A DNA stretch of 45,794 nucleotides from Rhizaria sp. SCN 62-66 (taxonomy: Eukaryota), in contig MEDY01000049.1 of NCBI GenBank assembly GCA_001724265.1, positions 62,001-107,794 on the forward strand, read 5' to 3'. This document shows positions 2,214 to 39,103 of this stretch, in pieces. The position numbers were made by a program, and so were the translations under genes. Under the pieces are notes generated by a model. The model was not told the origin of the DNA, did no database searches, and saw only the letters and a program-made list of their open reading frames with translations. Numbering within the stretch: the stretch's first letter is position 1; every line of letters starts with the position of its first letter.

Positions 2214-3338
2214 ATGCTTTCGAACGCGAATAACCTTGGACGCAGTGGTCCTGGCTCAATGTCCCCGCCTGGCCCGCACACGCCAGCTGCTAACTTTACG
2301 CCCTTTGACGACCGCGTGCTGAACCGGCACTGGGAGATGCGCGCCGTGGACCACCCTGGCTCTGCTGGCCTGGGCAGCAGCTTGCCTGTGAGCAACAGCG
2401 AGCTCACTGTCGCGCACCTGCACCGCGCCGCGACCTGCGGCGACCTCAACACTATAATCCGCTGCCTCACCAACGACGACGTGCGCAAGGCTATCAACAC
2501 TCCCGACCACGGCGGCGCTACGGCGCTGAGCCACGCTGTGTTCAAGGACGCGGAGTGGTGCGTCGCCGCCTTGCTTAACGCGCGCGCCGACCCCAACGTA
2601 AAGCTCAGCGACGGCCGCACCGCGCTGCATGTCGCGGCGTACTACAACAAGACGGGCGCGCTGAAGCGGCTGCTGCAGAATCCGATGACGCGCACGAGCG
2701 AGATCAACTTCCCCGTCAAGCCGATGCTCAACGCGAGCATGATCTTCTCCCGCAACGGCGTCCTGATGGGCACGCCGCTGCACTTCGCCGCTGAGAAGAG
2801 CCGCTCGGAGGCGTTCCTTATGCTTGTTAAGGCCGGCGCGGACGCGGCTGTGGTGACGTTTGGGGGGGAGACGGCCCTGCACGTTGGTTGCCGCTCGCAT
2901 GTGAGCGCGGAGGGGTTGTGGGAGTTGTTGTGGGCGACCAAGACGCGCATGGCGCGCGAAGACGACGCTGCTGTCGCATACAGCAACAGCGTTATGACAA
3001 ATGACCGCAACAATAGCAGCAACAACGCTGACGACGAAAGCAGCACCAGTGCTGGCAAAAGCGAGGGTTGCGAGAGCAGTCCTGCTGAGGGTGCGGTGAA
3101 GCCTGAGAGCAACAACTGCGAGTCAACGGCTGGGGCTGTAACTGCGTCTGCGCCTGGGGCTGATGCTGAAGCAGTGGCGGACTGCGCCGAGACACATGAG
3201 GCACGTGGTATGACCGACACTGATGCCGGTACTCGGGACAACGCAGAGATTGTGTCTTAGACAGCTGCAGTTACTTCGCCGGCGAAGGTTGTGCATGAGA
3301 GCGCTCTCTGTGAGGAGGAAGAAGAAGCCGGGGTTTGA
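2214..3338 (+). CDS. Ankyrin-repeat protein with one in-frame TAG (3258-3260); 374 aa if TAG is sense
   Basis: Ankyrin motifs HLHRAATCGD, GATALSHAV, GRTALHVAAYYN, GTPLHFAA, GETALHVGC. ATG at 2214. After TAG 3258-3260, coding-like sequence continues (TAAVTSPAKVVHESALCEEEEEAGV) to TGA 3336-3338, where AT-rich DNA begins. Confidence 0.8.
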
Positions 3339-3781: not shown

Positions 3782-6700
3782 TTACCGCCAAGCATTCGGA
3801 CCCTCAGGCACCTGTTGAGTGTTTCCGTCGTTGTTGGCACCACTGCGACTGTTGTTGCTGTTGCTGCCGCTGGCATGCGCTGCGCCGCGCCTAATGAGCG
3901 CGGACTGTTCGCCCTGCTTAACGAGGTAGTCTTTGCGCCGCTGCGTGCACGCCCGCGCCAGCGCGCTGAAGGCCACATTGCCGCGCGCGGCCACCTCGAT
4001 CGCGCTGCGTTGCGCGCCGCTGGCGCCCACGGTGCGCGCCGCGGTGACGGGGTACGCGGGGCTGCCTACGCACGAGGCCACGACAGCGGCGGAGTGGTGC
4101 TGTGGCTTTGACAGTGGGGGGAATGGCAGCGCGGTGGCCGCGGCGGGGGCGTCTGAGAGGAATGCCAGTGAGGGCAGCAGAGACGGCGGGACAAGCGACA
4201 TCGACGACGGCGCATGGGTCATCCCAGCATGGTAAGGGCCTGGTACAGCAGCGGTAGTGTAATTGGGCAAGTCCGAGCCTGCCGTGCCGCGGGCCCGCAT
4301 CAGGCCTGCGAACACTTGCTCTGGGGGTTGAGTGTGCGCGGGCGAGGCAAAGTGACCGTGAGCGGCGAGGTTGTGACCGTGACCGTGGCCGCGACTGCGG
4401 GCAGAGACCGGCTGTCCTTGGCTTTGACTGAAGTGACTGTGTGCAGCTGATGTGAGAGACTCGTCAGCCTCGGGAAAGCTCTCGAGTGACTGGGAATGCA
4501 GCATCAACGACGGTGAGTGCTGCAGCAACGCTGCTTGCGACTGAGCCTGTGAGCCTCCAAACGACTGTGTCTGAGACACCGATTGCGACTGCGACTGAGA
4601 CCCGGTGGTGCTGAGCAGCTGCAGCTGCGAGAGCGACTGCGACAACGCCAGCACGTGCGAGTGCGACTGCTGCGACTGCAGCTGCGCGTGCGACGTCGCC
4701 GTCTGCAGTTGCCGCGACATCGCGCCCTCCGCGGTCGCCTCAGCGGCGGCCGCGGCCGCCGTGGCGGCGGCACGCGCGGCGGCCGCAGCGGCCACGGTTG
4801 CGGCCGTCACGCCGCCCGCGCTCGCCGCAGCGGCAGCGGCCGCGGCCGCCAGCGTCGCAGCCGTGACGGCCTCGCTGTTGCCGCTACGGCCCCCGTGGGC
4901 CTGCGCAGAGGCGTGGCTGCCTGCGGCGGTCGTGGTGCCGACGAGAAACGGCAGCGCGAGCGGGGACAGCAGCGGCAGCGCAGCCGCGCTGGGCGTCGCC
5001 GTGCCGCTCCGAGTGAGATGCGGGTACGCGTGCATCGTCGCTGGGGACACGTGAGCGGCACCGGTACAGGCCGCAGCGGCGGCGGCGGCGCGGCGCGTGC
5101 GGCGCGGCGACGAAAGCACAGCCGTGCTGGCAGACATGGGCAGGAGCGCGACGGGCGTCTCCACGCTGCCGCCGTGCGCGACGGTGAAGTTGTGCGTTCC
5201 ACTGGCGAGGGCAGAGGCGTTGTTGCTCGCGCCGTACACACTGTACTGGTTGAAAGCGTTCACGCCGCCGTTCCGCAGCGGCGACTGCATTCCCCCGCCG
5301 CCACCGTCCGCAGCCGCACTGTAAGCGCCGTGCCCGGCTGCGTGCGCGTGCGGACCGCGGGCGAGCGTGTACGGGGGAGCCTGCGTGAGCGACTGCGTGT
5401 GCGCGACGGCGCGGGCCCGCGTGCGCGAGCGCGGCGTCGCGGTCGGGCGCACCGAGCTCTGCAGCAGCGGCGACTGCGGCGCCGACGGATGGCCGGGCGG
5501 GGGAGCGTAGGGACTGTGCATGAAAGGACTGTGGGGACCGGTGAGGGGCGCGCCAGGGCCGCCCGTGCTGTTGAAGAAGACGGGGGACCCGGCGGTGTGA
5601 TGGGGCACAAGGCTGGAACTGCCGGGAATCAATGGCAGTCCTTGCGTCGGCGACTGCAGATATCCTTGCGGAGACTGAGCGTATAGAAACTGTTCGAGCT
5701 GTTGTTGCTGTTGTAGATGTTGTTGCATCTGTTGTTGTTGCTGCTGCATCTGCTGCTAATGTTGCATCTGCTGCTGTTGTTCCGGAGTGAGCGGCGTTGA
5801 CCGCGGGGACTGTGCAAACGGATCGCTGCCATCCAGGAACCCGCCGCTCGATGTAAGCATCATCACGGGGCCATACTCGTCTGCGCCACTGCCACTGTTT
5901 GTCCCGGGCCCGCTCTGGCCGCCCTGCTGCGTGTTGAGACCAAGCGCAGCAATACTGGGCGCCTTCGCGTTCTTCGCGGCGGCGGCGTCGACTGTAGGCA
6001 GTGGTAACATCGTCGCGTTGATTATCGCCACGCTTGTGTCCGCGCGCTTGCTACCGTCAACGCGAGTCGTGACCAAGTCGACGTGACTCGGCGCCAACGC
6101 GTTCGCATTGGCGCTGACAAGAGCCTGTATATCGACAAGAGCGGTGGGCTCAGAGCTGGCGCTCGCGGGCTGAATCGCCTCTAGATCCCGGTTGCGACTG
6201 GGCTTGCGGCTGTGGTGTCCCCCGCGACTGTGCCCGCGACTGTGCGCGCGGCTGTGTCCAACAGCGCTGACCTCACTGATGTTGCGGCTGTGCCGCCCCG
6301 TCGCTTTCCCGCCGTTGTCGACGTCGCGGCTGTGCGTGCGGCTGTGCAGCCCGTGGCCGTGGTGGCCGTGGGCCGCCGCCGGCGACGGACTGTGGGTCGC
6401 GGACCGCAGCAGCGCCACGTCGGGCGCCGGGGACGGCGACGACGCAGCGCCCGCAGCCGCGCCCGCGTCGAGACCGGGCGTGGGCGAGTGCGGCGTGCCG
6501 CCGTGCATCTGCGACGGGGCGCGGGACAGCGACCGGGACTGCGGCAACACGACGGCGCCCAGCCACCACTCTTCCTCTCTCGCGCCGTCGCCGGCCTCTG
6601 CAGCGGCGGCCGCCGCAGCGCTCACGGCCGCGACGTGATCGCTCTCGGTGCCGGGGGCAGGCGTGACGGACAGCATGACTCCGTGGTGCTGCACGGGATT

Positions 6701-7837
6701 TTCGGGGCTGTTTGACTTGGCAACGCCATGGCCGTACGCCACCGTTGCGACACTCGCGCGCGCATTATTGCCATGCGACCCGGCGCTGCTATTGTTGTTG
6801 CTGTTCGGGTTCATCCCAGGGGGGCTGTTGAGCGCGTTATTGGCGTTCGAGATCTGCACCAGCGACCGCATCCGGACGAGGTACGCCCTGGCCTCGCTCT
6901 CCGCGTCCGCGCGGTCACGCTCGCCGTCGTCATCAGCCATCGCCGGTCCCACTGCAAGTGCGCCGCCGCCGCCACCGCCGTCATCGCGCTGCGAACGCGA
7001 CTGCGAGCGCGACCGCGAGCGTGACCGCGACTGCGGGTGCAGGGGCGAGCGCGTGCGCACTGAGCGGGCGGTGAGGAACGGCGACCGGCGCCGCGACAGC
7101 GCCGGGGACTGCGACGGCGAGATGTCCCGCGGGTGCAGCAGGTGCGAGGGAGCACGACATGGCGACTGGGGCTGAGGCACATGCGTCACTGTTGGCGCAG
7201 CTGCAGGCCCAGCGGGGACCGAGCCCACAGTGGCCAGCCGGCGCACCGGGGGCGGCGAGCGCGCGTCACTGCCGTCCTGCTGCTCTTGTGCCTGCCCGGC
7301 GCGGCTGTGGCCGGACATAACAGTGCCGCGGCGAAGGATGGCGCTGGAATGCGTCTGTTCTCCGTGTAGTTGTCCAGGCAGCGAGAGCATTGACGCGCGG
7401 CTGTGGGTATTCGGCCGGGTCGTAAGGGTCGCAGGCAGCGTCGTTACCAGCGGGGCGTCGCGCCAGTACAGCGTCTGTGCCGTCGCCAGCGGCGCGGGCC
7501 CGGACGAGGCTCCTATGAGAGAAGAGCTCGAGCCGGAGGCGGTGAGCCCAGCTGCGGTGGCGGTCGCCGTGGGGACCAGCGCCAGGTCCAGGAGCAGCGC
7601 GTTCATGTTGGTCGCACGGCGGGACGGTGCGTAGGGCTGCTGCGTCGGCTGGTCGCGCTGCGAGTGTGGCTCGGCCAGCGGGTCGTGGATGAGAGAACGG
7701 CGAGGGTTGCTCGCAGGGGAGAGAGTAAGGCCGCGCGCGCGCGATGCGGGTGTCCCCATCAAATCCGGTGCGGACGAAAAGTCGCGAGAGCCTGAGAGCA
7801 CGTCCCCGCCCGAGTGTGGGGCGGACGGGGAGTCCAT
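3782..7837 (-). CDS. Large low-complexity (Ser/Ala/Gln/His-rich) protein, about 1351 aa, with one in-frame TAG inside a polyQ tract
   Basis: ORFs 5756..7837 and 3782..5749 are in the same frame, separated only by TAG (5758-5756) in ...CAG ATG CAA CAT TAG CAG CAG ATG CAG.... GC-rich coding character is unbroken with no AT-rich intron. Ends in TAA. No recognisable domain. Confidence 0.7.
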
Positions 7838-8296
7838 GTGGATCAGGGCGGCCCGAGCGCAGCAAGAGCAACGGAGGCTGCTTCAGAGAGTGTGGGATGG
7901 CTTCAGAAACGATTGCTGAAAACAGGAATAGAATCGTTCGAGGAGGGTTGTAAGAAGATTTCGTGTGCTAAACAGTACATCAAATGTGGAATCGTCACGC
8001 GAATGCATTTCTACGATGGCCTTGCTAAGAACAACCTTTATGAAAACAGTCGCTTCGAGCCTGACCCGCCACGATCCTTCCCATGGTTCCACGATCACCA
8101 CCCAAAAGTTGGCGCCGAAGACCTGAACTTAGTTCACAAGTCATGCAATGTTTTGATTGTCAAATGTACAAATTGGACTGTTTATGGATAAAAATTGTGT
8201 TTTATCTTAATGTGCCTTTATAAAACTGTGTATTAGTCTTACAATTCCTGTTTATTATTGTGTTTTTAAACCTGTAGTGCGAAGTCGACAACTCCG

Positions 8297-11200
8297 ATGC
8301 CGCACCCAACATCGGTTGGCTCCGCGGAGTCCCCACCGTCGCAGACCGCTGCAACGCACTCATGTGCAGTATGCGGCGCCGCAATGCCCTTATCGGCAAA
8401 GCGCGCCGCACGTCAACGCTCTGTTTGCAAGCCATGCTTGCTGGTATGTCGTGTGCAACCCGTGTGCAACCCATCCAGCTCAAACATGTTATCGAGATTC
8501 CATTCGCCAATGCGGCATGTAGACTCACCATCCATGTGTTATGGTTTTTTCCCTTGGTATATAGGCTGAGATTGAGGCTGGTGATGGTTCTGGTACTGAT
8601 AACGAGCTACCTGTCTCGGACAACACAACCACGAGCGCATCCGCGACCTCATCTGCAAGCGAGTCTGTCACTGATCGCGCATTCGTCGCGACCGCAGTGA
8701 AGTCGTTTGCTCGTCAACTGCGCGAAATGAAGTCACTGGGCACACATACTCCACCCACTATGGCCTTGCGTGACTCAAATCCTGCTGTCATAAACGAGAA
8801 CGGCAGCGGCGGCTCCACAAGTAAGGCTGAGCGACGCGATGAAAACGTAGGCGCACTTGACAAGACGCTGACTAACATTAGGGTTATTTGTGTTTGAATT
8901 TCCAAAATATCTCGAACTACGTCTCATTAACATCATTTTTGTCACTGCTACTGTCTTGTATTTGCGTCTAGTACTGTTACGAGCACCAGACACCGATCCG
9001 CATTGTGAACTTTTGCGACACATGCGTCACCCCGGTCTGTCACCAGTGCGCACTATTGCACCCTACCCACAAGGCGCACCAGTTTCGCACGGTTGTTGAT
9101 GTCGAGCTAGAACTGCTGGAGAGGACGAAGACGCTCCATGCGCTCTACGCCGACTTCACATATCGTCAAGACGTACGCATTAATATGACTATAGGTTACC
9201 TTCAATCCGCTTTTAAAAGAATCCATGTTCAGAAATCCAGCTGTGAAGAACTCACATGTCAAATTGTGTGCATTTTTTGTTTCCAGTCGCAATCCATTGC
9301 GATGTCCAAGCTTGTTTCGGCCTCGTCGTCACTTCTTTCGCACACAAAAGACGCTTCTGCGACGTCGCTATCCGTGCGTTCGGCGCGCCCCGCCATCAGC
9401 GCGCACTCGAACATTGCTGCCTACAACGACCTAGCACACAAACACGAGGCCTCACTGCGCGCCTCTGCCCTCGCCACGCTGCAGTCGATCACCGCGGCGA
9501 CAGCGACCCCGGCTCTGGCCACGCTCGCGCCGCTGCTGCTGGACTGTGCGTGCTGGCCCACCCGCGTCGCGCCCTCGCTCGTCGTTGGCCCCGCGCGCTG
9601 GCAACGTGCGCGCGCCGCTCTCGCCGCAGCGGCTGCGGACGCCGCGCGCGCCACGGCACCACTCGCAGTCACCGTCGCCGCCGCGGTCCCGGCCACCGCA
9701 TTGGGCGTGATGGTCGATCGCAAGTCCACCACAGTAGTTGCAGGCGCAGCTGGGGCGGAAAATCGTGTTTTTATCGGACAGACAGCGTATCACGGTCTGG
9801 TGATCTCGTACTATGCTGTGCGCGTGTGTGGTGGCTGCGGCAACTGCGAGCACAGTAACACCGTTGCCCACAGGCAAAACCGCGCCGCCGTCGAGGGCAT
9901 TTCATCGTCTCTGTCGTGCCCCTCAAGCACTACGACTGATGCGAACTCCAATGGTACCAGCCGTGATGACGTATCAGCCGCGCCCGTCTGCAGCAACGGC
10001 TGCGCTATCGGCGTCGAGGCCGTGGTCTCCGTCCCTCGGCACGCGCCGCTCCTGCAGTCCAAGTACCGCACCCACCGCGAGCGCGGCCGCGAGATTGCAG
10101 CCCTCTTTTCTGACGAGATCAGGGTTCAGGCTGACGCAGCCGCAACGGCAGCAGCGGGTGCGGACGTGTCGCTGCCGTACCCCATGTTGCCTGCAGCCAC
10201 TCACAGTATTAGCTCGAGTCAGGTGACGAGCAGTGTGCTTGATCCTGTCGGCCCCAGCGCGGCTGAGAGCGGCAACGCGCCAACGGCAGTTGCTGTTGGC
10301 AAGGGCAAGACCAAGAACAAAGCTAAGAACGCGGGGACTGCCTCGGCGAGTTCCTCAACAGTCACGGGGGCGACTGTGTCAGACGTGGGCGCCGCGACTC
10401 CGTCAATGGTTGACATCGCCGTCTTCTCGGTTGACGCCACAGTCACCGTCGTCGCCGCGGCGGTTTCTCCCAGTGCGTTTACTCCCAGCTTCTTGTCGCC
10501 GGCGTGGTACGCGGAGAAACTCATCGCCGCCGCGCGCGCGCTGCCGCCCAATGAGGCGCTGTGCGTGCCGAGGTAGGTTGCCGTTAAGGCGGAGAATGGT
10601 GAAGAAAAGAAGAGCGAGGACAGTGTGAGTGCGCGTGCGACTGGTGCTAGTGACGCAAAGCCAGCTGAAGCTTCGGCGAGGTATATCCCGTCGAAGCTTA
10701 TCTGCCGCTATCCGACTCTGTTACCGAAGGCGGCTCGCGATGACATGGTACTAACGCCCGCGCCGTATACGAGTGAGGCGCTGAGTCGTGCGCTTGCTGA
10801 AGCCCACAGTTAGTCCCGAAATAACTCTGAGATTACGACGGCCGGTCTCGGCAGCGGTTTTGAAGATGTCATCTGGACGCTGCAGTCTTCGGCAGCTGAC
10901 GCATTGGCGTTGACGATCGCGACTCCGACAGACCCTGTTGTGGCAGCAGTCTCCAATGCGGACGCAGATGCTGATACGTCAGGATTGTCAGCCACGGACG
11001 CAGCTTCTGCTGCTCTCGGTAGCACCGCAACGCACATTGCGGACGCTGACTCCACCCATGTGTCGTCATCGCCAGCGCTGGCCTCAATCCCCGGAGTTGT
11101 GGACGTCATCATGCGCTCTCAGAGCGTGGTCACCGTGGGCGCAGCCGTCTCCACAGTGGGCCGCGGTGCAGTAGTGACTGTGAGCAGCGTCGCCGCAGCG

Positions 11201-13558
11201 TGCACTGAAGTGCTTGAGCGGAACGCGGCCGAAACCCTAGCAGCTAGGGCAGCTGCGAAGGCCGCCGCGAAGGCTGCGAATGCTCTCGCCAGGACGAAGG
11301 CGCGGGCAGAAAGGGTAACTGCGAAGGCAGGTGGAATGCGGGGCTTGCGACGAAGCGCGCGCGCTCGGGCTGCTGGCTATGGCGACGAGAAGAAGACGAA
11401 GGATGGGCGTGTGCTTCTGTTCTCAGTTGACTTTGGGCCTGCAGACGAGGATGACAGCGACGATGCGGACTATGTGGCAAGCGACGACTGCTACAGCAAC
11501 GAAGACGACGAAAATGAGGATTGTGAGAAGGATTCTGGTTCTGACGACTGCGACAGTGGCAGTGGCAGCGGAAGCTTTGCTACAGACTCTGAGTGCAGTG
11601 GATTTAGCGACGGATTCACCGACCCAGATGAGCATTACGCGGACCACGATAGTTAGCTTATCAAATAGCTGCTAGACAGCCACCCGAGTCATAAGATGAC
11701 TATGCGGGGACACAACAGCAATGCGGCTCGACAAAAGTTCGACAAGTGCCTCAGCAGTCTTATGTATGATGCTGTGGATAAGTACTACTGCTATGACATC
11801 AAGAAAGATTACAAATATGGCATGAAGGTGAGGCTTGCTGAAGCGAATGCAAAGGCTGAGGCGGAAGCCGCTGCGAAAGACAAGGCTGATGCAGAGGCCA
11901 AAGCAAAGGCGGAGGCAGAAGCCGAGGCAAACGCGATGGCTAATGCGGAAGCCGCTGTAAACGCGCCGGCTAAGGCTCGAGCTGGTTTAGACACAGACAA
12001 GACAGATTCAGGCACAGACAAGGTAGACTCAGACACTCAAGCTTCTGATGAGGAACACGAGGTCATCCCTAGATCTGCTGCTACCGAGAAGGTGTGCGCT
12101 GTTGAGGATGCAAATTTGGAAATTTATGTCAACTCAAAGGCTGATGCGAAGATCTCCACTGACAGTAGTGTTAATCCAGTCCCACCCAAGTCTGATCCGG
12201 AGTCAGAACCGACGTCTGACTCTGTTTTTGAGTCTGATCTCGAGTTAGAGTCAGAGTCCGACTCGGAAACAAATGCTTTAATCGAGCATAAGACCGAGTT
12301 TTATCTCCACTTCTCACTTACCGCGCGTGTTGGTGACGTATTTCAGCAGACCCGTCTGCTGCGGCTGCTGAGCGAGGCACATGACGAACTTGAACTCGAA
12401 CTTACAAACGAGACATTCTCGTTTGAAACCAAGCTTCTGAACTCGAGTGTTCCGCCATTACTTCTCTCACTCAACGTGAACAATCTTGAGAGTCACAAAG
12501 GCATTGCCATCAGCAACAAACTGACTGCAGCCGACGCTATCACTTCCCTCTCCGCGGCATCCGCGACCGACCTCTACACCCACGCGCGCGCACTACTTGC
12601 GCGGCAGGTTCCGCGTATTTTGCCTCCGTACGCTGCCCCGCCGAACGCGAGCTTGCTGTACAAGTGGCGTATGCCAGGCGACGCCCGCTACAACGGGCAG
12701 CGGCTGCGCATCATGATCGACGATGATGAGTTTCCGTGTCACGCCGCCAGTCTGCGCATGTTGGCGTACAAGGGTCGCCATGCCGCGTTGAACGTGCACA
12801 CGTGCTACAAGATGCTGACGGCTGACTGCGTTGCTCGGAATCAGGCTAACAGCGCTGCCGAGGTCGAAAAAAGCGATAGGTTGTCATTTGCTCAGTTTCT
12901 CGCAGTTGGCTTTGATCAATGTTGCAACAGTCTCGGTCTTAGTACTGTCAAGCGCATCACGGACGACAGTGAGAGCGAAAGCAAGAGCAAGACCGAGAGC
13001 TTTTGTCTCAACCCTGCGGCTCTCTGTGACCGGTTCTACAACGAGTGCACAACGCCTGCCACGAAGACATACCCCGCTGGCACAGTGTTTGCGCTATCCA
13101 TGTCCGCGTCACCGGCTACAGTGAATCATGCGATGTTTCTTATTGCGATCGCGCCCATCGCAGCCAAAGACGCGCCTGGCGCTGTGCCTGTGGGCTCCGT
13201 CGTGTCAGAGACGGGAGGCCCCGCAGTGGCACCGCCGGTGCTGCCGTCGGGGGAGAAAACAACGAAAACATCGATAGTGTCGACGATTGCGTCTGGGGAA
13301 AAGAATGCATCGGATGGTGATTCTGCGAGGACGACTCCAGTTGATGTTGAAGGTGGACTGGAGGCGGAGCTCATGCAGATCTGGTACTGGGCGCGGGCGC
13401 ACTTGAGCAAGAGCAACCGCTATCTCGAGAGCAGGAACAAGATCTTTGGGAGTGAAGGCTATGCTGACGGATGTGGAAGTAAAAATGACAATAATCGCGA
13501 ATGCAAGGCCCAGCTTGAGTTTGTTGGCTTTTATGACGGTGAGCAAATGGGCGAGTGA
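8297..13558 (+). CDS. CxxC-CxxC / B-box zinc-finger protein, paralog A (about 1633 aa), four in-frame TAG codons
   Basis: Exons 8297-8443, 8565-8846, 8972-9172, 9287-13558; all introns phase 0 GT-AG. Exon 1 encodes CAVC...CKPC; exon 3 encodes the B-box YCYEH...FCDTCVTPVCHQCALLHPTHKAH. ORFs 9005, 10625, 10904 and 11696 share one frame, broken only by TAG at 10574, 10811, 11654 and 11666. Ends in TGA. Confidence 0.75.
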
Positions 13559-14572
13559 GTCTGCTGCAGCTTGAGTTTGTCGAATTTTACGACAGTGATT
13601 TTATGGGCGAGGAATAATTTCCCGAGTGCATGACAATCTATGTGACTAAAGACACCGGCAACAGTACATTTTGGCCACTGGTGTACCTGGTAATGAAAAG
13701 TTTGCAACCACTATCAGAACACAGAATTGTTGAGTCCCATTTTGTTTGGATATGCAATAAATTAATCAACCTATTTTACTGTTGTATTTTTATGATTTAT
13801 TTTGTATCGAACAATTTTGGGTCATGCATGTTTTCTGGTATAAAATCATTTTCATAGAAAATCTCAATGAACAGGCATCACGAGATGTCGTCCATAATTT
13901 TACCGGTTTATGTCCCTAACAATAATATTAGTCGTTGTGAAACAAACATATTATATTCGATTTAAGCCGTTTTGAAATTAATAAATTTGTTTAATTTGCA
14001 TATGGAGTTATATTTGAGAGCTATACTTGTTTTCACACTAGTTCGTCGCAATTCATGGAGAGTAAGAGCGCTTAGCTGTCAAGATTTTGTGCTTCAGCGA
14101 CTCCGCCCGCGTAAGCCATCATTTGCAGAAGGCAGCCTTACATGTTGCTTGAATACCAACATTCATTGAGACCTCCACGCACGAACGCATCTTTGACACA
14201 TGGTCGTCGCCAGAATATGGATGTCGCACCCACGGTTTCACCAGCCAAATGAAACAAGAACCTTGTTAATATGTATTCAACCAATAAATATGTAGTAATT
14301 TCTTCTTCTAAAATATCTGCAGCTCCCACCGTTTCCTACTCAGCGCGCGTTTCCAATCAACAACACCACTCACCGACTTTGCTGACTGTCACAGCGTACC
14401 AACACCAGACCCGATACTTCGGAACGCATTATTCAACTAAAACAAAGCACATTGACACTCTAGATGTCATACTCCAATCTTGCGCCTAGACATAGTTCCA
14501 CGACACATGATGACAATGTTTTCCAAGCATAGAGCCAACAGAAACCGCAGAATGCATTAAGTCGCGTTTGCC

Positions 14573-16844
14573 TCACTCAGCGCCAGCGATCCAGCCGTCT
14601 TCGCTCTTGGTCGGCAGCGGGATGTCGAACGCCGCGCCGGCCTTAAGCGTTGCGATGACGGCGTCGATGGGCAGGCGCACCTGCATCGTCGAGTCACGGT
14701 CGCGCACAGTCACCTGGTTGTCGATAAGCCTAAACAGAGCAAAGTGAAATCCATCAAAAACAAAGCATAACATATCGATGAGTGTGGTTTTCAATGAATT
14801 CACACTCCATTGACACAAGAGACCCAATTATAATCAAGCACAAGAGTCATTACGCAATAAGTTGGGCGAGCATTAGTGAAGTGCAGTAAAGTTCAACGGA
14901 GTAACGTACGTCTCAGGATCAATGGTGACGATGTAGGGCGTGCCGATCTCATCGTGCCGCTTGTACCGCTTGCCCAACGTGCCCGTGACGTCCAGCGCGG
15001 TCGACACGTGCTTCGCGAGCCTGCCGTGCAGCGCCGCCGCGGCGTCCTTGACCGCGGCGTCCGACTTGGACGGGATCACGGCCACGCGGTAGGGCGCGAG
15101 CTCCTGGTGCACGCTGAACACGGTGCGCTTGCTCACCGTCACCTCGCCGTTGCGCATGCGCGTGACGCTCTCCTCGCGCCACCCGTCGGCCAGCAGCGCC
15201 ATGAAGAGCCGGTCGACGCCGACCGAGGGTTCGACCGTGTGTGGCAGGTCGCGGCCCGCAGGTGGGGCGGGGATCTTGGCCGTGGGTCCCAGCGCGCGGC
15301 GCGCGTCGTCGACGATGGCGGTGAGCCCCACGCCGTGCTGCCGCAGGTCGTAGTCGCCGCGGTTCGCCACGCCCCAGAGCTCGCCCCAGCCGAAGGGGAA
15401 CTTGTACTCGATGTCCGTCGTTGCCAGGGAGTAGTGCGCCAAACCCGTGGTGTAGGCGTTCAGACGCAGGTTCGCCGGGTTGAGGCCGTAGTCGAGCAGG
15501 AAGTTGTGGCACGCAGTGACAAAAGATGCGTAGTGCTGGGGGGACTCGTCGGGCAGACAAAAGTACTCAAGCTGTTGTCGCGAAGAGACAAAACAGGACA
15601 ATACATGTGTTAAGGGAAATCGGGGTTGTGAAGGGTCCAGTGATATTTGACGACATGCGCATCCATTAAATCAAATATGCTCCATAGATTTTTTGTTTTC
15701 GGCTGTTTTGACCGAGCAAGATCACGTACCTCGAGTTGCTCGAACTCGCGCATGCGGAATAGCAAGTCCCTGGGCGAAATCTCATTGCGGAACGCTTTGC
15801 CCACCTGCCCAATGCCAAACGGCATGACCAGGTTCGAGCTGCGGCGCACGCGGTCAAAGCTGACGAAAATGCCCTGCGCCGTCTCAGGGCGCAGGTAGGC
15901 GTCGTGCGTGCCGGCGCGCGTCGCCATAAGCAGGTTGAAGGGCTGCGGGTCGGTGAAGGTCGCGCAGCCGCACGTGCACTTAAAGCGGCACGACAGGAAC
16001 TTAGTTTTGACCTCATCGGTCCTGAGCACAGAATAAAGAGCACACATGAAGATGATGTGAGAGTTGGATGAGTTCATCAATTGATATGAAAAGTTGCGAG
16101 AGTGACTATCAACGCTTAACGGACCACTGGTTGAGGTTGGCAAGGGAGGACTCAATCACCATACCCTTGTCCTCGATAATCTTGTCGACGCGATGCTTAG
16201 TGTGGCACTTGGTGCACGCAACCTGGGGATCGGTGAAGTTCGCAACGTGGCCCGCAACTTCCCACGCTAAAACATCAAAAGCAATCAATTACACCACATA
16301 TAGGAGATGGGATGAGTCATTGAACCATATAGCAAGAGAAATACAGAAGAATAAACACAAAAGCACTCTGCAACATGGTTATGTCGCAATTTACGTTCGC
16401 TGTGCGAACGCAAAACAGTGTTTTGTATGAACACGTACTCTTGGGATGCTGAATGATGGCGGTGTCGACGCCCACAACGTCGGCGCGCTCCTGCACGAAG
16501 CGCTTCCACCACGCGGCAACAACGTTGCGCTTGAGCAGCACGCCCACGGGTCCGTAGTCGTATTGGCCCTTGACGCCACCATAGATCTCGCTGCTGGGGG
16601 AGACGAAGCCGCGGTGGCGGGCCAGCTGCGTCAGTTCCTCGAACGACAGCGGAACGCTTTTGTAGAACTGCTTCGGCTGCAGCGCGGGCTCAGCAGTGGG
16701 CAAAGCGGTGGCTGCCGCAGAGAAAAACGCGCGCGGAAGAGCGGTAGTGACGCGTGAAAAGCGGGAGGTCGCAGCCGCGGTCGCCGCAGAGACGACCGAA
16801 GACAGGGCCGGCATGGTGGTGCTGCGAAGGGCCCGACGAAGCAT
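14573..16844 (-). CDS. glyQS: Glycyl-tRNA synthetase, alpha2 (GlyQS-type), probably mitochondrial; 552 aa
   Basis: Exons 16844-16439, 16266-16125, 16021-15730, 15571-14910, 14729-14573 splice in frame. Motifs: SSEIYGG..YDYGPVG, TWEVAGHVANFTDP, YLRPETAQGIF, GIGQVGKAFRNEISPR..FRMREFEQLELEYF, FPFGWGELWGVANRGDYDL, EPSVGVDR, and the anticodon domain GKRYKRHDEIGTPY..VTVRDRDS. The N-terminus is Arg/Ser/Ala-rich and lacks acidic residues. Ends in TGA. Confidence 0.95.
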
Positions 16845-17225: not shown

Positions 17226-19619
17226 ATGTGTACGTCCCAATCAAAATCAACACTACTGCCCGGTTCAATCGACTTGTTTCTTTTTTAATTTTATCCGGAT
17301 TCTCTTCTCATCATTCGATCCTCTCCGCCCTGTGCCCCTCCTTCGCTCGAAACTCCAGCCTGGGGAGCCCCCAACCGGTTCAACACCGTCGGCGCCAACG
17401 CCTACGGCTTCGGCGCGCAACAGCCCACCGCCGCGCCTGGCTTCGGCTTCGGCGGCCAGCAGCCCGCTGCGGCGGCCGGTTTCGGCCTGCGTCCCGCTGC
17501 CACGACGGCTTTCGCGCCCGTGGCTTCCGCGGCGGGCGCCTATGGCTTCGGCGGCGCCGCGCCCGCCGCGGGCGGCTTCGGTGCTTTCGGCGCCAAACCG
17601 CTCGCGGGCACTGCCGCGGGCTTCGGCGCCACCCCGGCCGCGGCCCCCGGCTTTGGCGCCGCGGCCGGCGGCGGCTATGGCGCCAACCGCTTCGGCGCCC
17701 CCGCGGCCGCGCCCCAGCAGCAGCAGGGCTTCGGCTTCGCGCCTGCCCAGCCCGCCGCCGCCGCGCCGGGCGCGTTCGGCGCCGTGGGCTTCGGCGCACG
17801 TCCCACCGCAGCCCCCGGCGCGTTCCGCTTTGGCGCCCAGCAGCAGCAGCAGCCCGCCGCCGCGCCCGGCGGTTTCGGCTTCAACCTCGCGCCCGCGGCC
17901 GCGCCCGCCGCGCCAGCCGCGTTCGGTTTCGGCGTCCAGCAACAGCAGCAGCAGCCCGCCGCCGCGCCCGGCTTCGGCTTTGCGGGCTTCGGCGCCCAGC
18001 AGCCTGCAGCCCCCGCGGCGGGCACGTTCGGCGCGTTCGGCATGCGCCCCGCCGCGGCGCCCGCCCCCGGGGGCTTCTCTTTCGCCCCCGCCGCCGCCGC
18101 GCCCGCTGCAGGCGCCTTCTCCTTCGGCGCCAAGCCCGCGGCCGCGCCCGGCGCTTTCTCCTTCGGCGCTGCCGCCGCGCCCGCCGCGGCCCCCGCGGCG
18201 CCCGTGCCGACGCAAGCCCAGATCGCCGCCGCCACGGCCGCGGCGGCGGCGCAGAAGGCCGTCGCGGCCCGGGAGCTTGCGCAGCAACGTATCCAGGCCC
18301 AGCGCGCTCAGGCTGCCCCGCTGGTGGCGCTGGTGGACGACGACCCGTTCATGCTGGGCCAAGTCCGCGCCCCCGGCGGCAACGTCCCGCGCGCCACGCC
18401 CGCTGAAGTTCTCGCCAAGGCCGACATCGTTGCGCAGACACGCTACGGTATCGTCCCGCTCGCAAACGTTCCCGCGGCTGCCGCCGCCGCCGCCGCTGCC
18501 GCCGCGACTGCCGCCGCCGCCGCGACTACGTCGGTGTCGACCCCCGCGAAGCCCCCGCTGGGCGCCGGCGCCGGCGCCGTTGCGGGCCCGCCCCCGTCTG
18601 TGCTCAAGACGCCGCTGCCGGCTGCCGTGACCGCTGCGCTGCGCGCGTCGAGCTCTCCCGCCGCCGCCGCGCTCGGCGGCCGCAAAACCAACGCACACGC
18701 CGGCGCCGCCACCGCTGGCGAAGAGGAAGACGAGGACGGCGGCGTTGCCGGCGACGGCGTGTCTGCGTTCGCGCGCACACCGCTGCGCCACCACTTCACC
18801 ACCAACACGATGACCCACTCCAACGCTGTGGGCGCGGCGCTCCCCGGGGCTCCCGGCAGCGGCAGCGGCGGCGTCGGCAGCGGCAAGAAGGCCAAGGCGC
18901 GCCTCCACGGCCACTTTGGCGGCGCCGCGCTGGGCGGCCAGTTCGACGAGTTCGACGACGGCGCGGGCGGATACTTCAGCTCCGCCGGCGCTGCCGCCGG
19001 CGCTGCCGCTGGCCCCGCCGCCGCGAGTGACCGTGAGCAGCAGCTGGGGCTCGGCGAGGTTGCCACGCCCGCGCGCGCCCGCGTTGCAGGGGCCGGCTCT
19101 GTTGCCGCCACCCCCGCCGCGGCCACGGCCCACGGCCACGGCACGCCCGCCACCTTGACGCCTGGCTACGGCTTCCCCGCCTCGTACATGTCCCCTGCGC
19201 CCACCAGCGCCGCCGCCGCCGTTGCCGCTGCGGCAAGCGCGACGACGGCGGGCTACACGCCCTCCGGCGGCTTCGCCATCGCTACGCCGGGCCGCGCCGC
19301 GCCGCCCGTGTCGCCCTTCGTCACGCTGACGCCGCAACGGTCCGACGCGGCCAGCGCGCGCGGCCTCGTCGGCGGTGACGGCGCGGCGGCGGGGCTGTCC
19401 CCGTTTGCGTACAGCAGCGCAGGGCTCAGCGGCAGCGGCAGCTTCGGCGGCAGCGGCGCAAGCGTGGGCGGTGGCGCGACGCCGGTGACGCCGCTGTGCG
19501 GCGTGCGCGGGTCGCTGCTCTCGTCACCCATGGCCGTCGCGGCGCTCTCTGCGCACGCCGCGGGCGCCGGGGCCGTGACCGCGGAGCAGCAGGCGCTGCG
19601 GGCCGCGCTCGAGCGGTGA
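17226..19619 (+). CDS. FG-repeat nucleoporin-like protein (Nup98 N-terminal-like), 754 aa
   Basis: A 4-nt first coding exon ATGT (17226-17229), intron GTACGT...CCAG (17230-17358), then exon 17359-19619 give MSWGAPNRFNTVGANAYGFGAQQP.... Many GFG/AFG/FSFG repeats are spaced by Ala/Pro/Gln. Later DDDPFMLG and RYGIVP motifs. Ends in TGA. Confidence 0.7.
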
Positions 19620-20090: not shown

Positions 20091-23000
20091 TCAGTGCTTG
20101 GGCGTGGCCCTGGGGTGCGCCTTGCCGGGCTTCTCCGCCTGCGCCGCGGCCTGCGCGGCCTCGACGACGGCGGCCAGCACGATCTGCGGCTGCGCCTTGA
20201 CCTGTGCGCGCGCCCGCTCCAGCGCGCCGGCGGCCGCGTCCTCGGGCCACAGCTCCTCTTCCAGCGGCGGCGCCGTGTAGTGGCCGTGGTGGTGGTGGCC
20301 GTGAGCCGTCCCCGTCCCCGTCGCAGCGACAGCGGCGGCGGCGGCAAGAGCTGCGCCGCCGCCTGCGTAGAACGAGTCGTTGCCCTCCTCGCCGTGGTAG
20401 GGAATCAGCGCGCGCGGCAGCCCGTGCATGCGCCGCTGCGCCTGGCGGTACCCGGCCAGATCGGGCGCCTGCCCCACCGCGGCCTGCGTCTGCACAAGCA
20501 GGTTGTGCGCGCGCGCCAGCGCGGCGTCGGCGTCGGCAACGGCGGCAGCGTCCGAGAGCGCGACCGGAGTCACGCTGCCCCACTTGCCCCCGTCGTCGTC
20601 GTCGGCCGCGCCCTTGCCACCGGGACCCACACCTGCACCACCGGCGGCTCTCGCAACGCGGCCCGAGCCGCCCGCGGGCGCAGACAACTTGCCGCTGGCG
20701 TTAGCGCCGCCGCCACCGCCGCTGCTGCTGCCGTTGCTCGCAGCGGCCGCCGGCGGGAGCGGGTTCATGTCTGGCGGCACACCGCGCAGCGTCTTGTAGC
20801 CAAACCGCTCGCGGTAGGCGCGGATGAAGTCGTTCTCGGCGCTCCGCAGCGCCTTGCTGGCCTCGGCGCGGTCCGCGCGCCGCCGCGCCGCCGCCAGCAG
20901 GCGAACTTTGGCGGCGTCAACGGTCTCGGCCGTGTCAGCGAGCTCCTCCTGCAGCATGCGCACGGCGTGCGACACGGCGTCGTCGGCGCGCGCACCCGGC
21001 AAAAGCTGCTCCAGATACACCACCAGGCCTGTGTTGGACTGCGGGAGCAGCCCTGCGGAGCGGAGCTCCAGGATCGCGCGGTCCTCGAGCGAGTAGTGCG
21101 CAAGAGAGGCCTCGGGCAGCGCGGACGCGCGCAGGTGGGGCTCGAACGGCGCCGGGACGGGCGGCGCGGGGCCGACCACGCGCGAGAGCGCGGCAGGGGC
21201 GCGCGAGAGAGGATCGAACACGGCGGGCGCCGCCACGATGATCATCGCAGGGTCGTCCTGCTCGTTCTCCGCAGTCCCGGAAACATCAGCAACACGGCGA
21301 TGTGAGGAGCTGCGCTTGCGGGGCTTGGAGCGGCTGCGCTTGGCGTTCGCGTCCGCGGCAGAGCTGGCGTTGACGTTGGCGGGACTGGGGAGACAAACGT
21401 CGTTGTCGTCGTTGTCGTCAGTGTTGTTGGTTGCGAGACGAGAGCGCTTGTGCTCATGCTCACCGTCAACAGCAACAGCAGCAGCGGCGGGATCAGCTGT
21501 TGCACTGGCACTGTTCGTGTCGTCCAATCCATCGCCTGTCAGAGTCACTGTCGGTTTCACAGCAGCGCCAGCAGACACAGAGCTCGCACTCGCGTCAGTT
21601 GCACCGGTCTGATTCTCAGTCTTGGTGACACTGTCGACGGTCTGAGCGACATCGTCAGCCGTCGCCTCAGCCTTCACCTCACCCGCACCCGCACCCGCAC
21701 TGGCACCGGCGCTAGCGTTGCGGGAGGCTTCGTCCGCAGCTTCGGCCTCCCGACGCCGCTTGCGCCGCTCGCGCCTCTGCGTCCGCCTCTCGTCGCGCCT
21801 CTCAGCGCGCTCCCAGCGGCCCGCGGCCTCGCGGACGTACCGCGCGTACGCACGCTCGGCCTCGGCGTCGCCCTCCCAGACCGGCGCGTACACCGTCACG
21901 CCCAGCCCTGGCACCTCGCAGTCGCCGAGATCGGCAGAGGCACCGGGGACGCGCGAGTGCGCGCGTGCGCGCCGTGGGCCGGGGTCAGTGAGCCCCGCGG
22001 CGGCGCAGACCAGAGCGGGGTCGAGCGCGTCCGCGGGCACGCCGAGCTCTGCCGCGACCTCGGCCACCAGCGCCGTGACGGATGGGTGCGGCACGGCGAC
22101 GCCGAGGGGCCGGTACACGCGCGGCAGCAGCGGCGCGCCGGGCGGGCACTCGACCAGCGCGCTCAGCAGCCGCTGCGACAGCGAGTGCGCGCACAGAGAG
22201 CGGTCGGCGCCCGCGCCGCCCACGAAGGACGCGGCAGCGGCAGCGGCGGCGGCGGCGGCGGCGGCGGCGGCAGCGGCGTCGGCGTCTGATGTCACCGGTG
22301 CGGGCGCGTTGCTGCTGCTGCCGCTGCCACTGCCATTGCTGCTGCCGTTGCCGCCGTTCGCGCTGCTGTTGCCAGAGCTAGATGTCGTGAACGGAGCGAT
22401 GAGGTCGGGCGACACCGTGCTCGGCAGCCGTAGCGGCGCGTTGCTGTGGCCGTGGCCGTGACCGTGACTGTTCCCGTGGTGACTGCTGTGGGAGGCCGCA
22501 GCAGGAGCAGCGGCAATCTCAGTCGCAGTCGCGGCGACCGGCGCATTGCCGGTGCTGCCGTTGAGCGTGGTAAGCGCAGAGACGCCGCTGGCGACCGAAG
22601 CGCTGGCGGCACGCGCAGTGATGCTCGGCGTCAGACTGCCACTCCCGCTCTTTGCTCCAGCGCCCTTCTGACCACCGCCCTTGCCGTGGCCGGCGCCCGC
22701 GCCCGCGCCGGCCTCGGCGTCGGCGCTGTTGCCCGCAGCCGCCGCAGCAGCGTCCGCCGCGGCTTTGCGTGCGGCCTCGCGCGCCGCGGCCGCGATTGCT
22801 TGCGGCGAGGCGGCGATGTTGTGCAGATGCCCCGCGGCCGCGGCCGCCGCAACCGCGGCAGCGGCCGCCGCGGCCTCGTGTCCGTGCGCGGCCTGCGTCT
22901 GCTGCTGCTGCTGGTGCTGCTGCTGCGGGGTGAGCAGCGGCGGCGCCAGCGCGGCGGCGGCGGCGATGGCGGCCTCGGCCTCGGCGACGGTCGCGCCCCC

Positions 23001-23861
23001 GGGCGCCCCCGCCGCGGCCGCCGCGGCCGCCGCGCCGTAGAGGCGCGCGGGCGGCGGGCGCAGCAGCGCGAGCGCGGGCGCCACGGGCAGCGGCTGCAGC
23101 GGGCGCGACTGGCCCGGGTTGAACAGCGCGCGGTCCACGGCGGCGATGCGCGCGCGCACCAGCGGCGGCAGGTGTGTCGCCACAAGGAGCCTCGCGCCGG
23201 AGGTGAGCGCGGTGCGGTCGGAGCGGGAGCGGAAGACGCGGGACAGCGCGAGGGCGCGCCAGACGGAGGACATGACCGAAGTCGATGACGGGAGGTCCGC
23301 GGGAGACATCGTCTCGGTCGACGTGGGGGTTGCCTGCGACGACTTGCCGTCTGTGGAAATAGAACTCGCAGAAGATGCGTTGCTAGTGCTCTTTTCAGCC
23401 TGCTTCTGCTTCTGTTGCTGCTGAGTGGGCGAGAGCGGCGTGTCCTCGCCCCTGTCCGCCGCGGCGTCGGCCTCGGCGTTCGGCATAGGCACCACCCCGG
23501 CCAGCATGTAGCACGCCGCGAGCGTGGCCAGCGACGCGTCGACCGAGTGGTCCCACGCCACGGTCGCGAAGCACGGCGGCGGGAGCCCGTGCAGGTGGCT
23601 CTGGCCCGACGGCGCGCCCAGCGCCAGCTGCGGCGCCGCGGGCAGCGCGAACGGCGGTAGCAGAGGGGTCGGCCCACTGTGGTGTTTGCTGTCGTCGCTG
23701 TGGCGGCGGCGGCGGCGAGCGTTGTCGGTGTCGACGTCGGTGACGTGCGCTGACGACGATGATGAGTCCTTGCTGTCGCCGGCGCTGGCGCCTTCGCTCT
23801 TGACTGCATTGCTGTCACTCTGCTGCTGCTGCTCGTTCTCGCTCTTAACCTCGGTCTGACT

Positions 23862-23897
<36 letters not shown>

Positions 23898-33455: not shown

Positions 33456-33772
33456 ACCGGCTGCTATTGAAGAAGGGCCGTAAAACAATTTTGTTGGAAG
33501 GGAGAATATTATGAAACAAAATCTGGGTGTAGAGATCAGACGTGTTTACGGAACTTCGAGGTCATAATATTGTGAACAAGATTGGCGTCGACAAGGCGCC
33601 AACTCGCGAAGCCAGACTCGCCCGCCACCACATCTTCTCAGTAACATCGTCAAGTCAGTCGCATATACTGCATTTAGATGTGAGGCGTGGAGTTTGAGGT
33701 TTATCTCACGATTAAATATTGTCTAACAAATTATTTTCTTCTTGAATGCAATCTTAGGACCACGACAACCTG
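33456..33772. promoter_or_regulatory. Probable bidirectional promoter between RFC2 and XPA
   Basis: 317-bp gap between divergent start codons; inferred from gene geometry only. Confidence 0.45.
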
Positions 33773-36406: not shown

Positions 36407-39103
36407 TTAAGTTTGTACTTTCCAAGAGGTGGTGCTGAGCAACTCTTGCATTACATTGTCAAACAACGTCAATTTTTTTGTCTCGTTGTTATGCAGCTTC
36501 GGCCAGTTTGCTCTTAGTGAAGAATCGGCCTCCTCGAGCTTGACCTGGTTTATGGCCGCCTTTGTCGCCTTGACGTCGGCCGCGGGGACAACGCGGGCGG
36601 ACACGGGACTGGCCTTGCCAGCGGCCGCGGGCTTGATGCTGTGGATGGCAGAGATGAGCGCGGCGGGCAAAACTTTAGGCTTGCCAGCAGCGGCACCAGT
36701 GGCGGCGGCTTGCTCCGCCTTCTTCGCGGCTTCTTTAAAGGCAGCAAGCTCGGTCTTGAGAGACTCCTCGGTTTTCAGGGAGTGGGACGCGGTGGCCGCA
36801 GCAGCAGCATTAGCGACGTTGTCGGGCGTATGTTTCACAGCATGCTCGACGGGCTCAGCGGCAGCAAGGACAGACATATCGAACGAGGCGATCGCAGATA
36901 AAAGATCAGCAGGCTGACTGGCGAGGGTGGCCACTCTAAGCGCCATAGCATCGGTGTACAACTGCTGAGCACGCGCTTGCTGCATAACGTCGGGGAACGA
37001 CACTACACATTGCACACGAATTCGTGACTTCACCTAACTAATATTGTTGGCAATCTGTTTTGAATCATGTGCAAACAGTACCTAACTGACATTATCAGAA
37101 AGAACGAGTGAAACAACAGCAATGCGTGACTTCTCCTTTCCAACGCTGGCAGCAATCATCACGTCTGACCGATTATTTTCTTTGCTCTCCTCGTAAAGCC
37201 ACACCTCGCATGAAGCAGTCGTCTTACAAGATTTGTTACTGCTTGTATCGAGCGCAGAGATAACGGTAACTTCTGCGGTTACGCGGCCAAAAGTATTTGC
37301 AACAGTTGCAAACGGTGTTGCCACATGTTTTGCAGTCTTCATGAGATCCATTTTAAATGTGGAATGCGATTCGACTGGAGGACGGCAAGTTTTGCTATCA
37401 TTGTCGCTACGGCCACTGCCAATTTGATCCTGATCTTTCATAACAAAATCGTCACCGGCAACATCATCGCAGAAATGATCTTCTGTAAACACAAGATCAT
37501 CAACAGCACGTGCACGTGAGCCACATGCCTCATACAACGCAGCAAGCATTTTGCACGACGGCTCCGCCGTAACTTCGCACACGATCCCACATAAGCACAG
37601 GTTCTGCCTGTCGACACCTTCAATTCCGTTACCGTTTTTTGCAACACGGACAATATTTGCTTTCGCGCAACTGCAACCGCGGCCCAGGCGAAAACGGAAA
37701 CGCACACCGCAAAGCTCAGCTGTGCCAAGCTCCACCGGCTTGGCACCGAGCGCAAGCTCTGAGATTGGAATATCTGCTTCACAAACGGCTTTGCGCGGGG
37801 TTAAACCCGTAGCAGCGTCAGCCAGTGCGGCCTCAAATGCCTCGCGCGCGGCTGCGTGCTTTGTACTCCCAACCTCAAGTGGTGGGTCAACGCGTGCAGG
37901 CCAACCTGTGCTTGCAGTGACGAGCGCAGCCATCTCCGTGATATCGGGTGCGACGACCGACTTTGTGAAGCTCTCCAGGTTGTCGCGAGCCACGACAAGC
38001 TTTTTATCTTCAGCGATAATCGATTGTGCGGTATAGAGTTTGAGCTGGGACAACACTGCCGCAAGGGGCGCGGCAGCCTGAACAGCAAGCATCTTGCTTT
38101 GATCGAGCAACGCTGTGTGCTTACTGTTGACCATATCCCTGAACTCCGCCATTGCAGCTGCTTGTTCCTGAGGTGAGAATCGAAGAAGAAACAACACATT
38201 TTACGTTACGTACATGAAAAAAAATTAGAAATGTGAGCGGGTATTATTACGGAGATTGCAATTTCCGATTGCAATTCCTCACTTTGTGACACAAGCAAAA
38301 GCTTCCAGCTCTCTGTTACGAACCTAAACTTTGCACTCAAAGCTGCCAAGCTGTAATGGCAGTTGCTCCGCGCAAATTTTAAGCTGTGTACGCACATCGC
38401 TAATCATGCGGATATTGTGACCCACATGAGTGCGGCTCCTCACATCGCACTGGAGGCACACCGTGGAGTTGCAATTGTCGCACCAGTTGATGATCTCGAT
38501 GGGCTGCCCGTGCAAGTGGCAGTACTAAAGCAGTAGCAACAGCAATAATAAGAAATACAAACAATGTTAGGCTGTTGCACCATGTTTTTGATATTAAATC
38601 ATGCGAAATCGACGACGCATAGTTGAGTGTAACGAATGAGTGAATCTGATGGAGTTGTACAGGAGCGATAATAAAAGTGAGAGCCGAATCGAAATGTGGT
38701 GGAGTGACCAAGCGTACGTTTGGGGCATCAGCAGGAATGCTTGATTGTTTGTTGTCTGCAGCAACGTTGTCGTTAGAGGACTTGTGGCCGCGAATCCCCG
38801 TGTTAGTCGGGACTCCAGGGAGGTCATGCTTTGCAATCTCAGCCTAATGAAAAGAGTTAGAAAGTGAACAAAAATATTGATAGCCATAGTTGCGTTCAAC
38901 TAAATCTGCAGAATCATAATGGCTGACTTCGCCTCATGTATCGCTTACGACAGACTTTACGATAGCAAATAGAGAACACAAGAAATACAAGGACTTGGAA
39001 TCTGTAGACTTACCTGTATGCAGTTCTTACAAAGGCGAGATGGTCGGCCTCCGGGTGGAAGACTCAGAGTTCGGCCACATATAAGGCAGCTAGAAACACT
39101 CAT
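36407..39103 (-). CDS. CxxC-CxxC / B-box zinc-finger protein, paralog B (about 725 aa), three in-frame TAG codons
   Basis: Exons 39103-39014 (MSVSSCLICG...LCKNCIQ), 38843-38718, 38524-38324 (B-box YCHLH...WCDNCNSTVCLQCDVRSRTHVGH), 38167-36407. Same exon layout as paralog A. TAG at 38326-38324, 37084-37082 and 37036-37034. Ends in TAA. Confidence 0.75.

Follow-up and report, generated by a model that had tools for sequence, protein, structure and literature searches.

The window analysed here is a 45,794-nt stretch of the Rhizaria sp. SCN 62-66 assembly (contig MEDY01000049.1, positions 62,001–107,794 of the forward strand), and the gene in question is a plus-strand gene whose last exon carries four in-frame TAG codons. 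A sequence-only reading of this DNA had joined four open reading frames (ORFs) into one 4.3-kb exon and proposed full reassignment of TAG to glutamine. We followed it up across the assembly (G000; eukaryotic, 34.9 Mb, 714 contigs), of which about 0.98 Mb including overlaps, <3% of the genome, was read. TAG is well supported as a sense codon in this genome, UAA and UGA still terminate, and the residue inserted at UAG is probably glutamate in the main.

The window gene and its in-frame TAG codons

8883..8971, plus strand: candidate intron before the B-box exon; phase-0 junctions keep the frame, donor atypical, boundary putative; the TAG at 8969 is the acceptor
8972..9172, plus strand: B-box zinc finger exon; Pfam zf-B_box 22.9 bits, E 9e-5, slightly below the 24.1 cut-off
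9173..9286, plus strand: predicted in-frame GT-AG intron of 114 nt; donor of the eRF1/Thg1 type, T-rich acceptor
9287..13558, plus strand: terminal exon of 4,272 nt and 1,423 codons, ending in TGA; frame open apart from the TAGs
10574..10576, plus strand: in-frame TAG 1; a GT resembling a donor overlaps it, though the coding signal goes on and no acceptor lies downstream
10811..10813, plus strand: in-frame TAG 2; crossed unchanged by a polyA-library contig (run X1)
11654..11656, plus strand: in-frame TAG 3, from frame and composition
11666..11668, plus strand: in-frame TAG 4, from frame and composition
12677..13180, plus strand: possible degenerate cyclophilin-like domain, a lead only; ESM Atlas feature matches of 0.88–0.90 to PF00160 clusters, recognition below threshold

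The frame of 9287–13558 (+) holds TAG at 10574, 10811, 11654 and 11666, and its first TAA or TGA is the TGA at 13556. The ORFs starting at 9005, 10625, 10904 and 11696 were confirmed to share one frame, as the sequence-only reading had it, and the linkers between them contain neither TAA nor TGA. That no AT-rich, intron-like segment interrupts them also held. Composition in 120-nt windows stays coding-like throughout the exon (GC 0.45–0.78, T ≤0.28), and the flanking windows at 8880 and 13680 have GC 0.31–0.39 and T 0.37–0.38. Micro-introns that might remove the TAGs were sought as in-frame segments with a canonical donor and a T-rich acceptor, and none was found at any of the four codons (0/4). 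The GT..AG span 11652–11668 was rejected as an intron, since it is 17 nt long and its excision would break the frame.

The terminal exon encodes a low-complexity, fast-evolving product with low codon bias (G + C at third codon positions, GC3, 0.63). A Pfam search of 9287–13558 gave no family at E ≤ 0.01, Pfam gave no match for the cyclophilin-like region 12677–13180, and a single-sequence fold model of the C-terminal part was unusable (predicted local distance difference test score, pLDDT, 31). With UAG as a sense codon, the gene would encode a B-box protein, and translation of its 4.3-kb exon would pass four UAGs; it is probably weakly expressed and fast-evolving.

The sequencing runs compared came from samples labelled activated sludge and wastewater. 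A 309-nt contig from the polyA library of run X1 (10747–11055) crosses the TAG at 10811 unchanged, with DNA carry-over possible. X1 also covers the apparently non-coding 14055–14327 and is therefore no proof of transcription. Intron joints were looked for in runs X1, X2 and X4, and none was seen. A 3,407-nt contig from run X3, which may be the source sample, matches 10428–13834 with 0 differences.

With the off-frame stop mix as the null, four TAGs have a chance of p = 0.002. With single-base nonsense mutations from the gene's own codons as the null, the chance of 4/4 TAG rises to p ~0.07, because half of the one-step nonsense mutations from these codons yield TAG; the window gene alone is therefore only suggestive, and the genome-wide data carry the case. 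At a kappa of 3, CAG is about equal to GAG as a one-step source of TAG in this gene. Its TAG density (2.8 per 1000 codons; 4 in 1,423) is well above the genome rate (Poisson p 0.002–0.004 at 0.35–0.45 per 1000), and relaxed selection on it is possible, with the code change standing regardless.

Those figures are also what speaks for the standard code, under which the TAGs would be nonsense mutations of pseudogenes, leaky readthrough, edited sites or parts of small introns. RNA support consists of one short contig, and one paralogue of a kinase plus Sel1-like repeat family (L067), with a frameshift as well as an in-frame TAA, is pseudogene-like. We nevertheless regard the standard code as very improbable, on the evidence of gene ends, of the only eRF1 and Thg1 genes found and of a CUA tRNA.

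TAG across the genome, eRF1 and Thg1

Gene ends were model-based: long frames were scanned for stop codons that lie in coding sequence and have no donor motif. Non-coding sequence followed the codon cleanly in 32/36 cases for TAA, 26/28 for TGA and 3/13 for TAG, whereas coding continued in frame past TAG in 10/13 cases, past TAA in 2 and past TGA in 0 (Fisher p = 3e-8). Some loci were picked for holding TAG, which inflates the continuing count and leaves the terminator count unaffected. The three TAG ‘ends’ are themselves doubtful: two interrupt polyglutamine (polyQ) runs, with a TAA or TGA following 8 and 32 codons later, and after the third the frame stays open for 212 codons. TAG thus hardly ever stands at a gene end, which argues against the standard code.

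Coding sequence totalling 201,060 codons contained 70 TAGs (0.35 per 1000, with some noise from introns), about 100-fold more rarely than CAG (32 per 1000) or GAG (35 per 1000). Exonic TAG lies in eRF1, Thg1, SUV3, an SNF2 helicase, five kinases and three ankyrin repeats. In the domain matches inspected, exonic TAA and TGA were absent, a further point against nonsense mutation under the standard code; matches on C520, C66, C6, C64 and C317 that contain a TAA or TGA lay outside this set. No stops fell within domain matches of AAA (0/21), ABC (0/20) or WD40 (0/149). Kinase matches with TAG numbered 11, five of them exonic and six with the TAG as acceptor or intronic. The dynein heavy chains (seven genes) were set aside, as all their TAGs are intron acceptors or intronic and therefore uninformative on the residue; a TAG of L069 opposite a Glu of a paralogue was likewise discarded as an intron acceptor. 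L067, L068 and L069 form a TAG-rich family of kinase plus Sel1-like repeat genes.

The sole eRF1 gene found (L001, minus strand) has an in-frame TAG at 1594–1596, within the stop-recognition domain at human position 107, with a gap-free alignment across it, and a separate JGI contig has the same TAG. A second eRF1_1 match proved to be Pelota. The eRF1 protein also carries T32S, giving GSS in place of the GTS loop; Ser32 was found in 0/117 homologues and T32 is kept in 117/117. G57S, L124M and K130Q are likewise unique among these homologues. The closest relative (P0004, 84% identity), likely a standard-code sister lineage, keeps T32 and has M34V, T58K and T99E in common with the protein here. 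T32G of Iotanema has been linked to UAG reassignment, the proposal being that it abolishes a contact made to the G of UAG; relatives of Iotanema that use the standard code retain GTS (PMC5304391; PMC9161772). T32A is lethal in yeast (PMC4381064), and serine is therefore a plausible mild change at this position. The eRF1 gene is strongly codon-biased (GC3 0.89) and yet carries the rare TAG, for which the chance in such genes is ~1 in 10; autoregulation through this codon is therefore only a suggestion.

Thg1 is single-copy, and an in-frame TAG replaces the codon for the third carboxylate in the active-site motif (E77), again in gap-free alignment. E77 is described as one of three conserved carboxylates (PMC3701042, PMC6471195). 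Counted in a homologue library clustered at 50%, the column is Glu in 157/165 aligned stretches (150 proteins) and Gln in 1; the eight non-Glu stretches are mostly weak, degenerate copies, and the closest relative, 71% identical, has Glu. Of the tRNA-His copies checked, 2/3 are without a genomic G at −1, and Thg1 is therefore probably needed. TAG in these two sole genes found, together with the co-occurrence of a CUA tRNA and the GTS-loop change, is difficult to reconcile with the standard code.

The CUA tRNA and the probable residue at UAG

A single tRNA gene with anticodon CUA was found (Rfam tRNA 58 bits, with a T run after the gene), on an 86-kb contig where nuclear formin and GINS genes flank it. 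ARAGORN labels it ‘Pyl’; its structure is a canonical cloverleaf (RF00005 positions 1–71, standard D and T loops), an architecture that we take to be unlike tRNA-Pyl. Among the tRNAs seen in this genome, Glu(CUC) matches it best (score 68), and the Gln types score 30.5 and 18.5. Its first five acceptor pairs equal those of both Glu tRNAs and differ from both Gln tRNAs, and base 73 is G, as in Glu(UUC), with U in tRNA-Gln. The gene is therefore Glu-type in sequence, and its charging is a prediction. Two pattern searches, covering intron-less tRNAs of typical form, gave no UUA tRNA, and a DNA search with tRNA-Gln(CUG) gave five near-identical copies and no other locus, hence no Gln-derived CUA tRNA. 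ARAGORN left unassigned a tRNA-Tyr-like gene with a short intron at L011:2709–2793(−).

Pfam scores were summed over 14 of the TAG sites themselves: Glu comes out ahead of Gln by +5.9 bits, of Lys by +5.8 and of Leu by +21.6. In this small set of sites, the two strongly conserved columns found (Thg1, eRF1) are Glu, and Gln appears only at variable or paralogue columns. The eRF1 column (E107) is Glu in 106, Asp in 10, Val in 1 and Gln in 0 of the 117 homologues, and the SUV3 TAG aligns with an Asp of human SUV3. Glutamate is thus the more likely residue on this comparison of columns and tRNA.

Several observations weigh against glutamate. Thg1 contributes 3.9 of the bits, and without it Glu exceeds Gln by +2.0 bits over 13 sites, 4/13 leaning slightly to Gln; E77 of Thg1 makes no direct metal contact (PMC3701042), and in eRF1 the closest relative has Val at this column. 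TAG stands opposite Gln of human NEK1, opposite two Gln and one Lys at Sel1-kinase paralogue columns and, in L157:1336–2400, opposite Gln of the genome's own ubiquitin. L157:1336–2400 is ubiquitin fused to an unrelated domain and may belong to an element that is mobile or of recent duplication. PolyQ runs contain five TAGs, whereas in Glu runs none was seen. The CUA tRNA is only 47/73 identical to Glu(CUC), it is without C36, a determinant for bacterial glutamyl-tRNA synthetase (GluRS), and it has U35, U1-A72 and G73, which are tied to glutamine charging of bacterial amber suppressors (PMC9976931).

The context tests kept 40/61 candidate TAG sites, leaving out L008, L020, L067, L108, L131, L151, L156, L157 and weak-scoring sites. 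The context model ranks Gln first, and a first context mixture, biased by polyQ, was best at 40% Gln-like. Flanking residues at the 40 sites reject a purely Glu-like origin (likelihood −86.8 vs −77.1), and a binned flanking-residue likelihood is flat from 40% to 100% Gln-like. The base before TAG differs from that at CAG sites (p = 0.002), but other codons beginning with T show no such difference from TAG (p = 1.0), and it is therefore uninformative; there was no clear +4 C excess at TAG over CAG sites.

These Gln contexts, and the fact that UAG, where reassigned, most often becomes Gln (PMC11687900), speak for UAG = Gln with UAA as stop, an Iotanema-type code and the residue that the sequence-only reading had chosen. 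That reading would leave the only CUA tRNA found a Glu-type one and would place Gln at the most constrained TAG site, Thg1 E77 (1/165), and at eRF1 E107 (0/117), and we judge it improbable. Among interruptions of polyQ runs, TAG numbers 5, counted by a different filter, against 10–33 for each missense codon and 240 for synonymous CAA. TAG in polyQ is thus no commoner than missense interruptions and far below CAA, and an account in which TAG arises from CAG by transition is therefore tenable. The polyQ TAGs and the Glu columns can be reconciled if many TAGs are CAG codons altered by a transition where the protein tolerates it.

Mixed charging would reconcile them as well. Under it the codon is ambiguous: the Glu-derived CUA tRNA would be charged by both GluRS and glutaminyl-tRNA synthetase (GlnRS), and a Glu/Gln mixture would be tolerated and the codon kept rare. 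This would cover the Thg1 and eRF1 columns and the Gln contexts together, it accords with a TAG about 100-fold rarer than CAG or GAG, and in E. coli amber suppressors with U35 are frequently charged with glutamine (PMC9976931). The tRNA-Gln of this genome has G1-C72 and U73, however, so that its own GlnRS probably disfavours U1-A72/G73, and the transition bias from CAG accounts for the Gln contexts without mischarging. We consider ambiguity unlikely.

We therefore favour, as the probable reading of the sequence evidence, a variant nuclear code in which UAA and UGA are stops and UAG, used as a rare sense codon, stands chiefly for glutamate. The CUA tRNA would descend from a tRNA-Glu whose anticodon changed at one base (CUC to CUA), would be charged by GluRS and would pair with UAG and not with UAA. 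T32S would loosen the hold of eRF1 on a third-position G, selectively at UAG. TAG would be kept rare as one tRNA gene competes with a partly active eRF1. Many TAGs would stem from CAG by C-to-T transition at tolerant sites, the polyQ cases being Gln-to-Glu substitutions.

The proposal of one long exon in which a dedicated tRNA reads TAG as an amino acid is thus backed by eRF1, Thg1, gene ends and the CUA tRNA. As to full reassignment, the sense reading stood; completeness was not borne out, with TAG ~100-fold rarer than CAG or GAG, one tRNA gene and a conservative eRF1 change, and some termination at UAG may persist. A more elaborate and quite doubtful version is an early-stage reassignment, in which the Glu-derived CUA tRNA, possibly carrying both Glu and Gln, would contend with a half-blind T32S eRF1, and the eRF1 UAG would act as a feedback valve, more eRF1 bringing more truncation of its own message. 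Bacterial RF2 is subject to comparable autoregulation through an internal stop.

Surrounding loci and relation to known codes

Further TAGs lie in neighbouring frames of the window.

5756..5758, minus strand: in-frame TAG within a polyQ run of a 1,366-codon frame, 3782–7882
37082..37084, minus strand: in-frame TAG of frame 36407–38200
37034..37036, minus strand: second in-frame TAG of frame 36407–38200
3258..3260, plus strand: TAG 25 codons upstream of the TGA of an ankyrin gene's frame; sense, intronic or terminal all possible

The frame 36407–38200(−) has 597 codons and no Pfam match, and its two TAGs, 16 codons apart, have near-identical local contexts. The window also holds a glycyl-tRNA synthetase-like exon with an HGTP anticodon-binding domain (14873–15670, −), presumably resembling the bacterial type; an FG-repeat nucleoporin-like gene, recognized by eye (17289–19619, +); Ada3 (20091–24875, −); an RFC-type AAA ATPase (32634–33545, −); and XPA (33746–35572, +). 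The last four are nuclear genes of ordinary kind, and each carries long insertions rich in Ala.

About eleven dynein heavy-chain loci suggest that the organism is a flagellate. Four ubiquitin loci (L155, L158, L159, L162) are unusually divergent, with an extra Met-Ser start and monomers with a three-residue tail; two copies end at contig breaks, and no polyubiquitin monomer junction was found in the four loci read. Rhizarian polyubiquitin has one- or two-residue insertions (PMC12930898), and the extra serine is a faint hint of Rhizaria. A very divergent, AT-rich small-subunit (SSU) rRNA gene with four group I introns (L034:1501–5945, C706) may come from another organism in the bin; its first insert has, by eye, an apparent His/Cys-rich homing-endonuclease-like frame.

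The closest parallel in type is Iotanema spirale (UAG = Gln, UAA/UGA stop; Panek et al. 2017, PMC5304391), alike in UAG-only reassignment, UAA as main stop and a change at eRF1 T32. There the change is T32G and 204 UAG are reported in 126 genes; here it is T32S, a Glu-type CUA tRNA gene was identified, and TAG is far rarer. Oligohymenophorea sp. PL0344 (UAG = Glu, UAA = Lys; PMC10553269) is alike in its tRNA-Glu-like CUA suppressors and in decoupling UAA from UAG, but there UAA is sense and ten CUA tRNA genes are described, whereas in this genome UAA is the most frequent stop and the searches gave one CUA gene. UAG is glutamate, as proposed here, in peritrich ciliates and Blastocrithidia (UAR = Glu; PMC11687900; PMC12153298), where UAA and UAG are both reassigned, and UGA too in Blastocrithidia, in contrast to UAG only here.

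UAG-only nuclear codes are catalogued as Leu (rhizarian exLh, TARA phyllopharyngeans), Gln (Hartmannula, Trochilia, Protocruzia) and Ser (Scotinosphaera), with none listed as Glu (PMC11687900). A Leu reading of the exLh type fits poorly here, and the L69A of its eRF1 is absent. In phyllopharyngeans 78–91% of genes use UAG (PMC11687900), compared with ~0.35 per 1000 codons here. A nuclear code with UAG = Glu and UAA as stop was not found in the literature searched, mostly open-access main texts, and a prior report is possible. Should the residue be Gln, this is another independent case of an already known code.

UAA and UAG nearly always shift together, and exceptions test how eRF1 separates a third-position G from A. 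If UAG = Glu with UAA as stop is true, the code table is missing from the published lists consulted. Standard gene callers would, judging by the codon rate, truncate about a tenth or more of the genome's longer genes, and work on genetic-code expansion would gain in T32S a simple candidate change for release factors that are amber-selective. A suppressor tRNA gene is identified here, where the Iotanema/exLh study is without one. The case would also be a second independent eRF1 T32 change in a UAG-only lineage, with a T32-keeping close relative as a natural control. That the codon is so rare suggests that its reassignment is recent or only partial, a point of relevance to the codon-capture and ambiguous-intermediate models of how the meaning of a codon changes.

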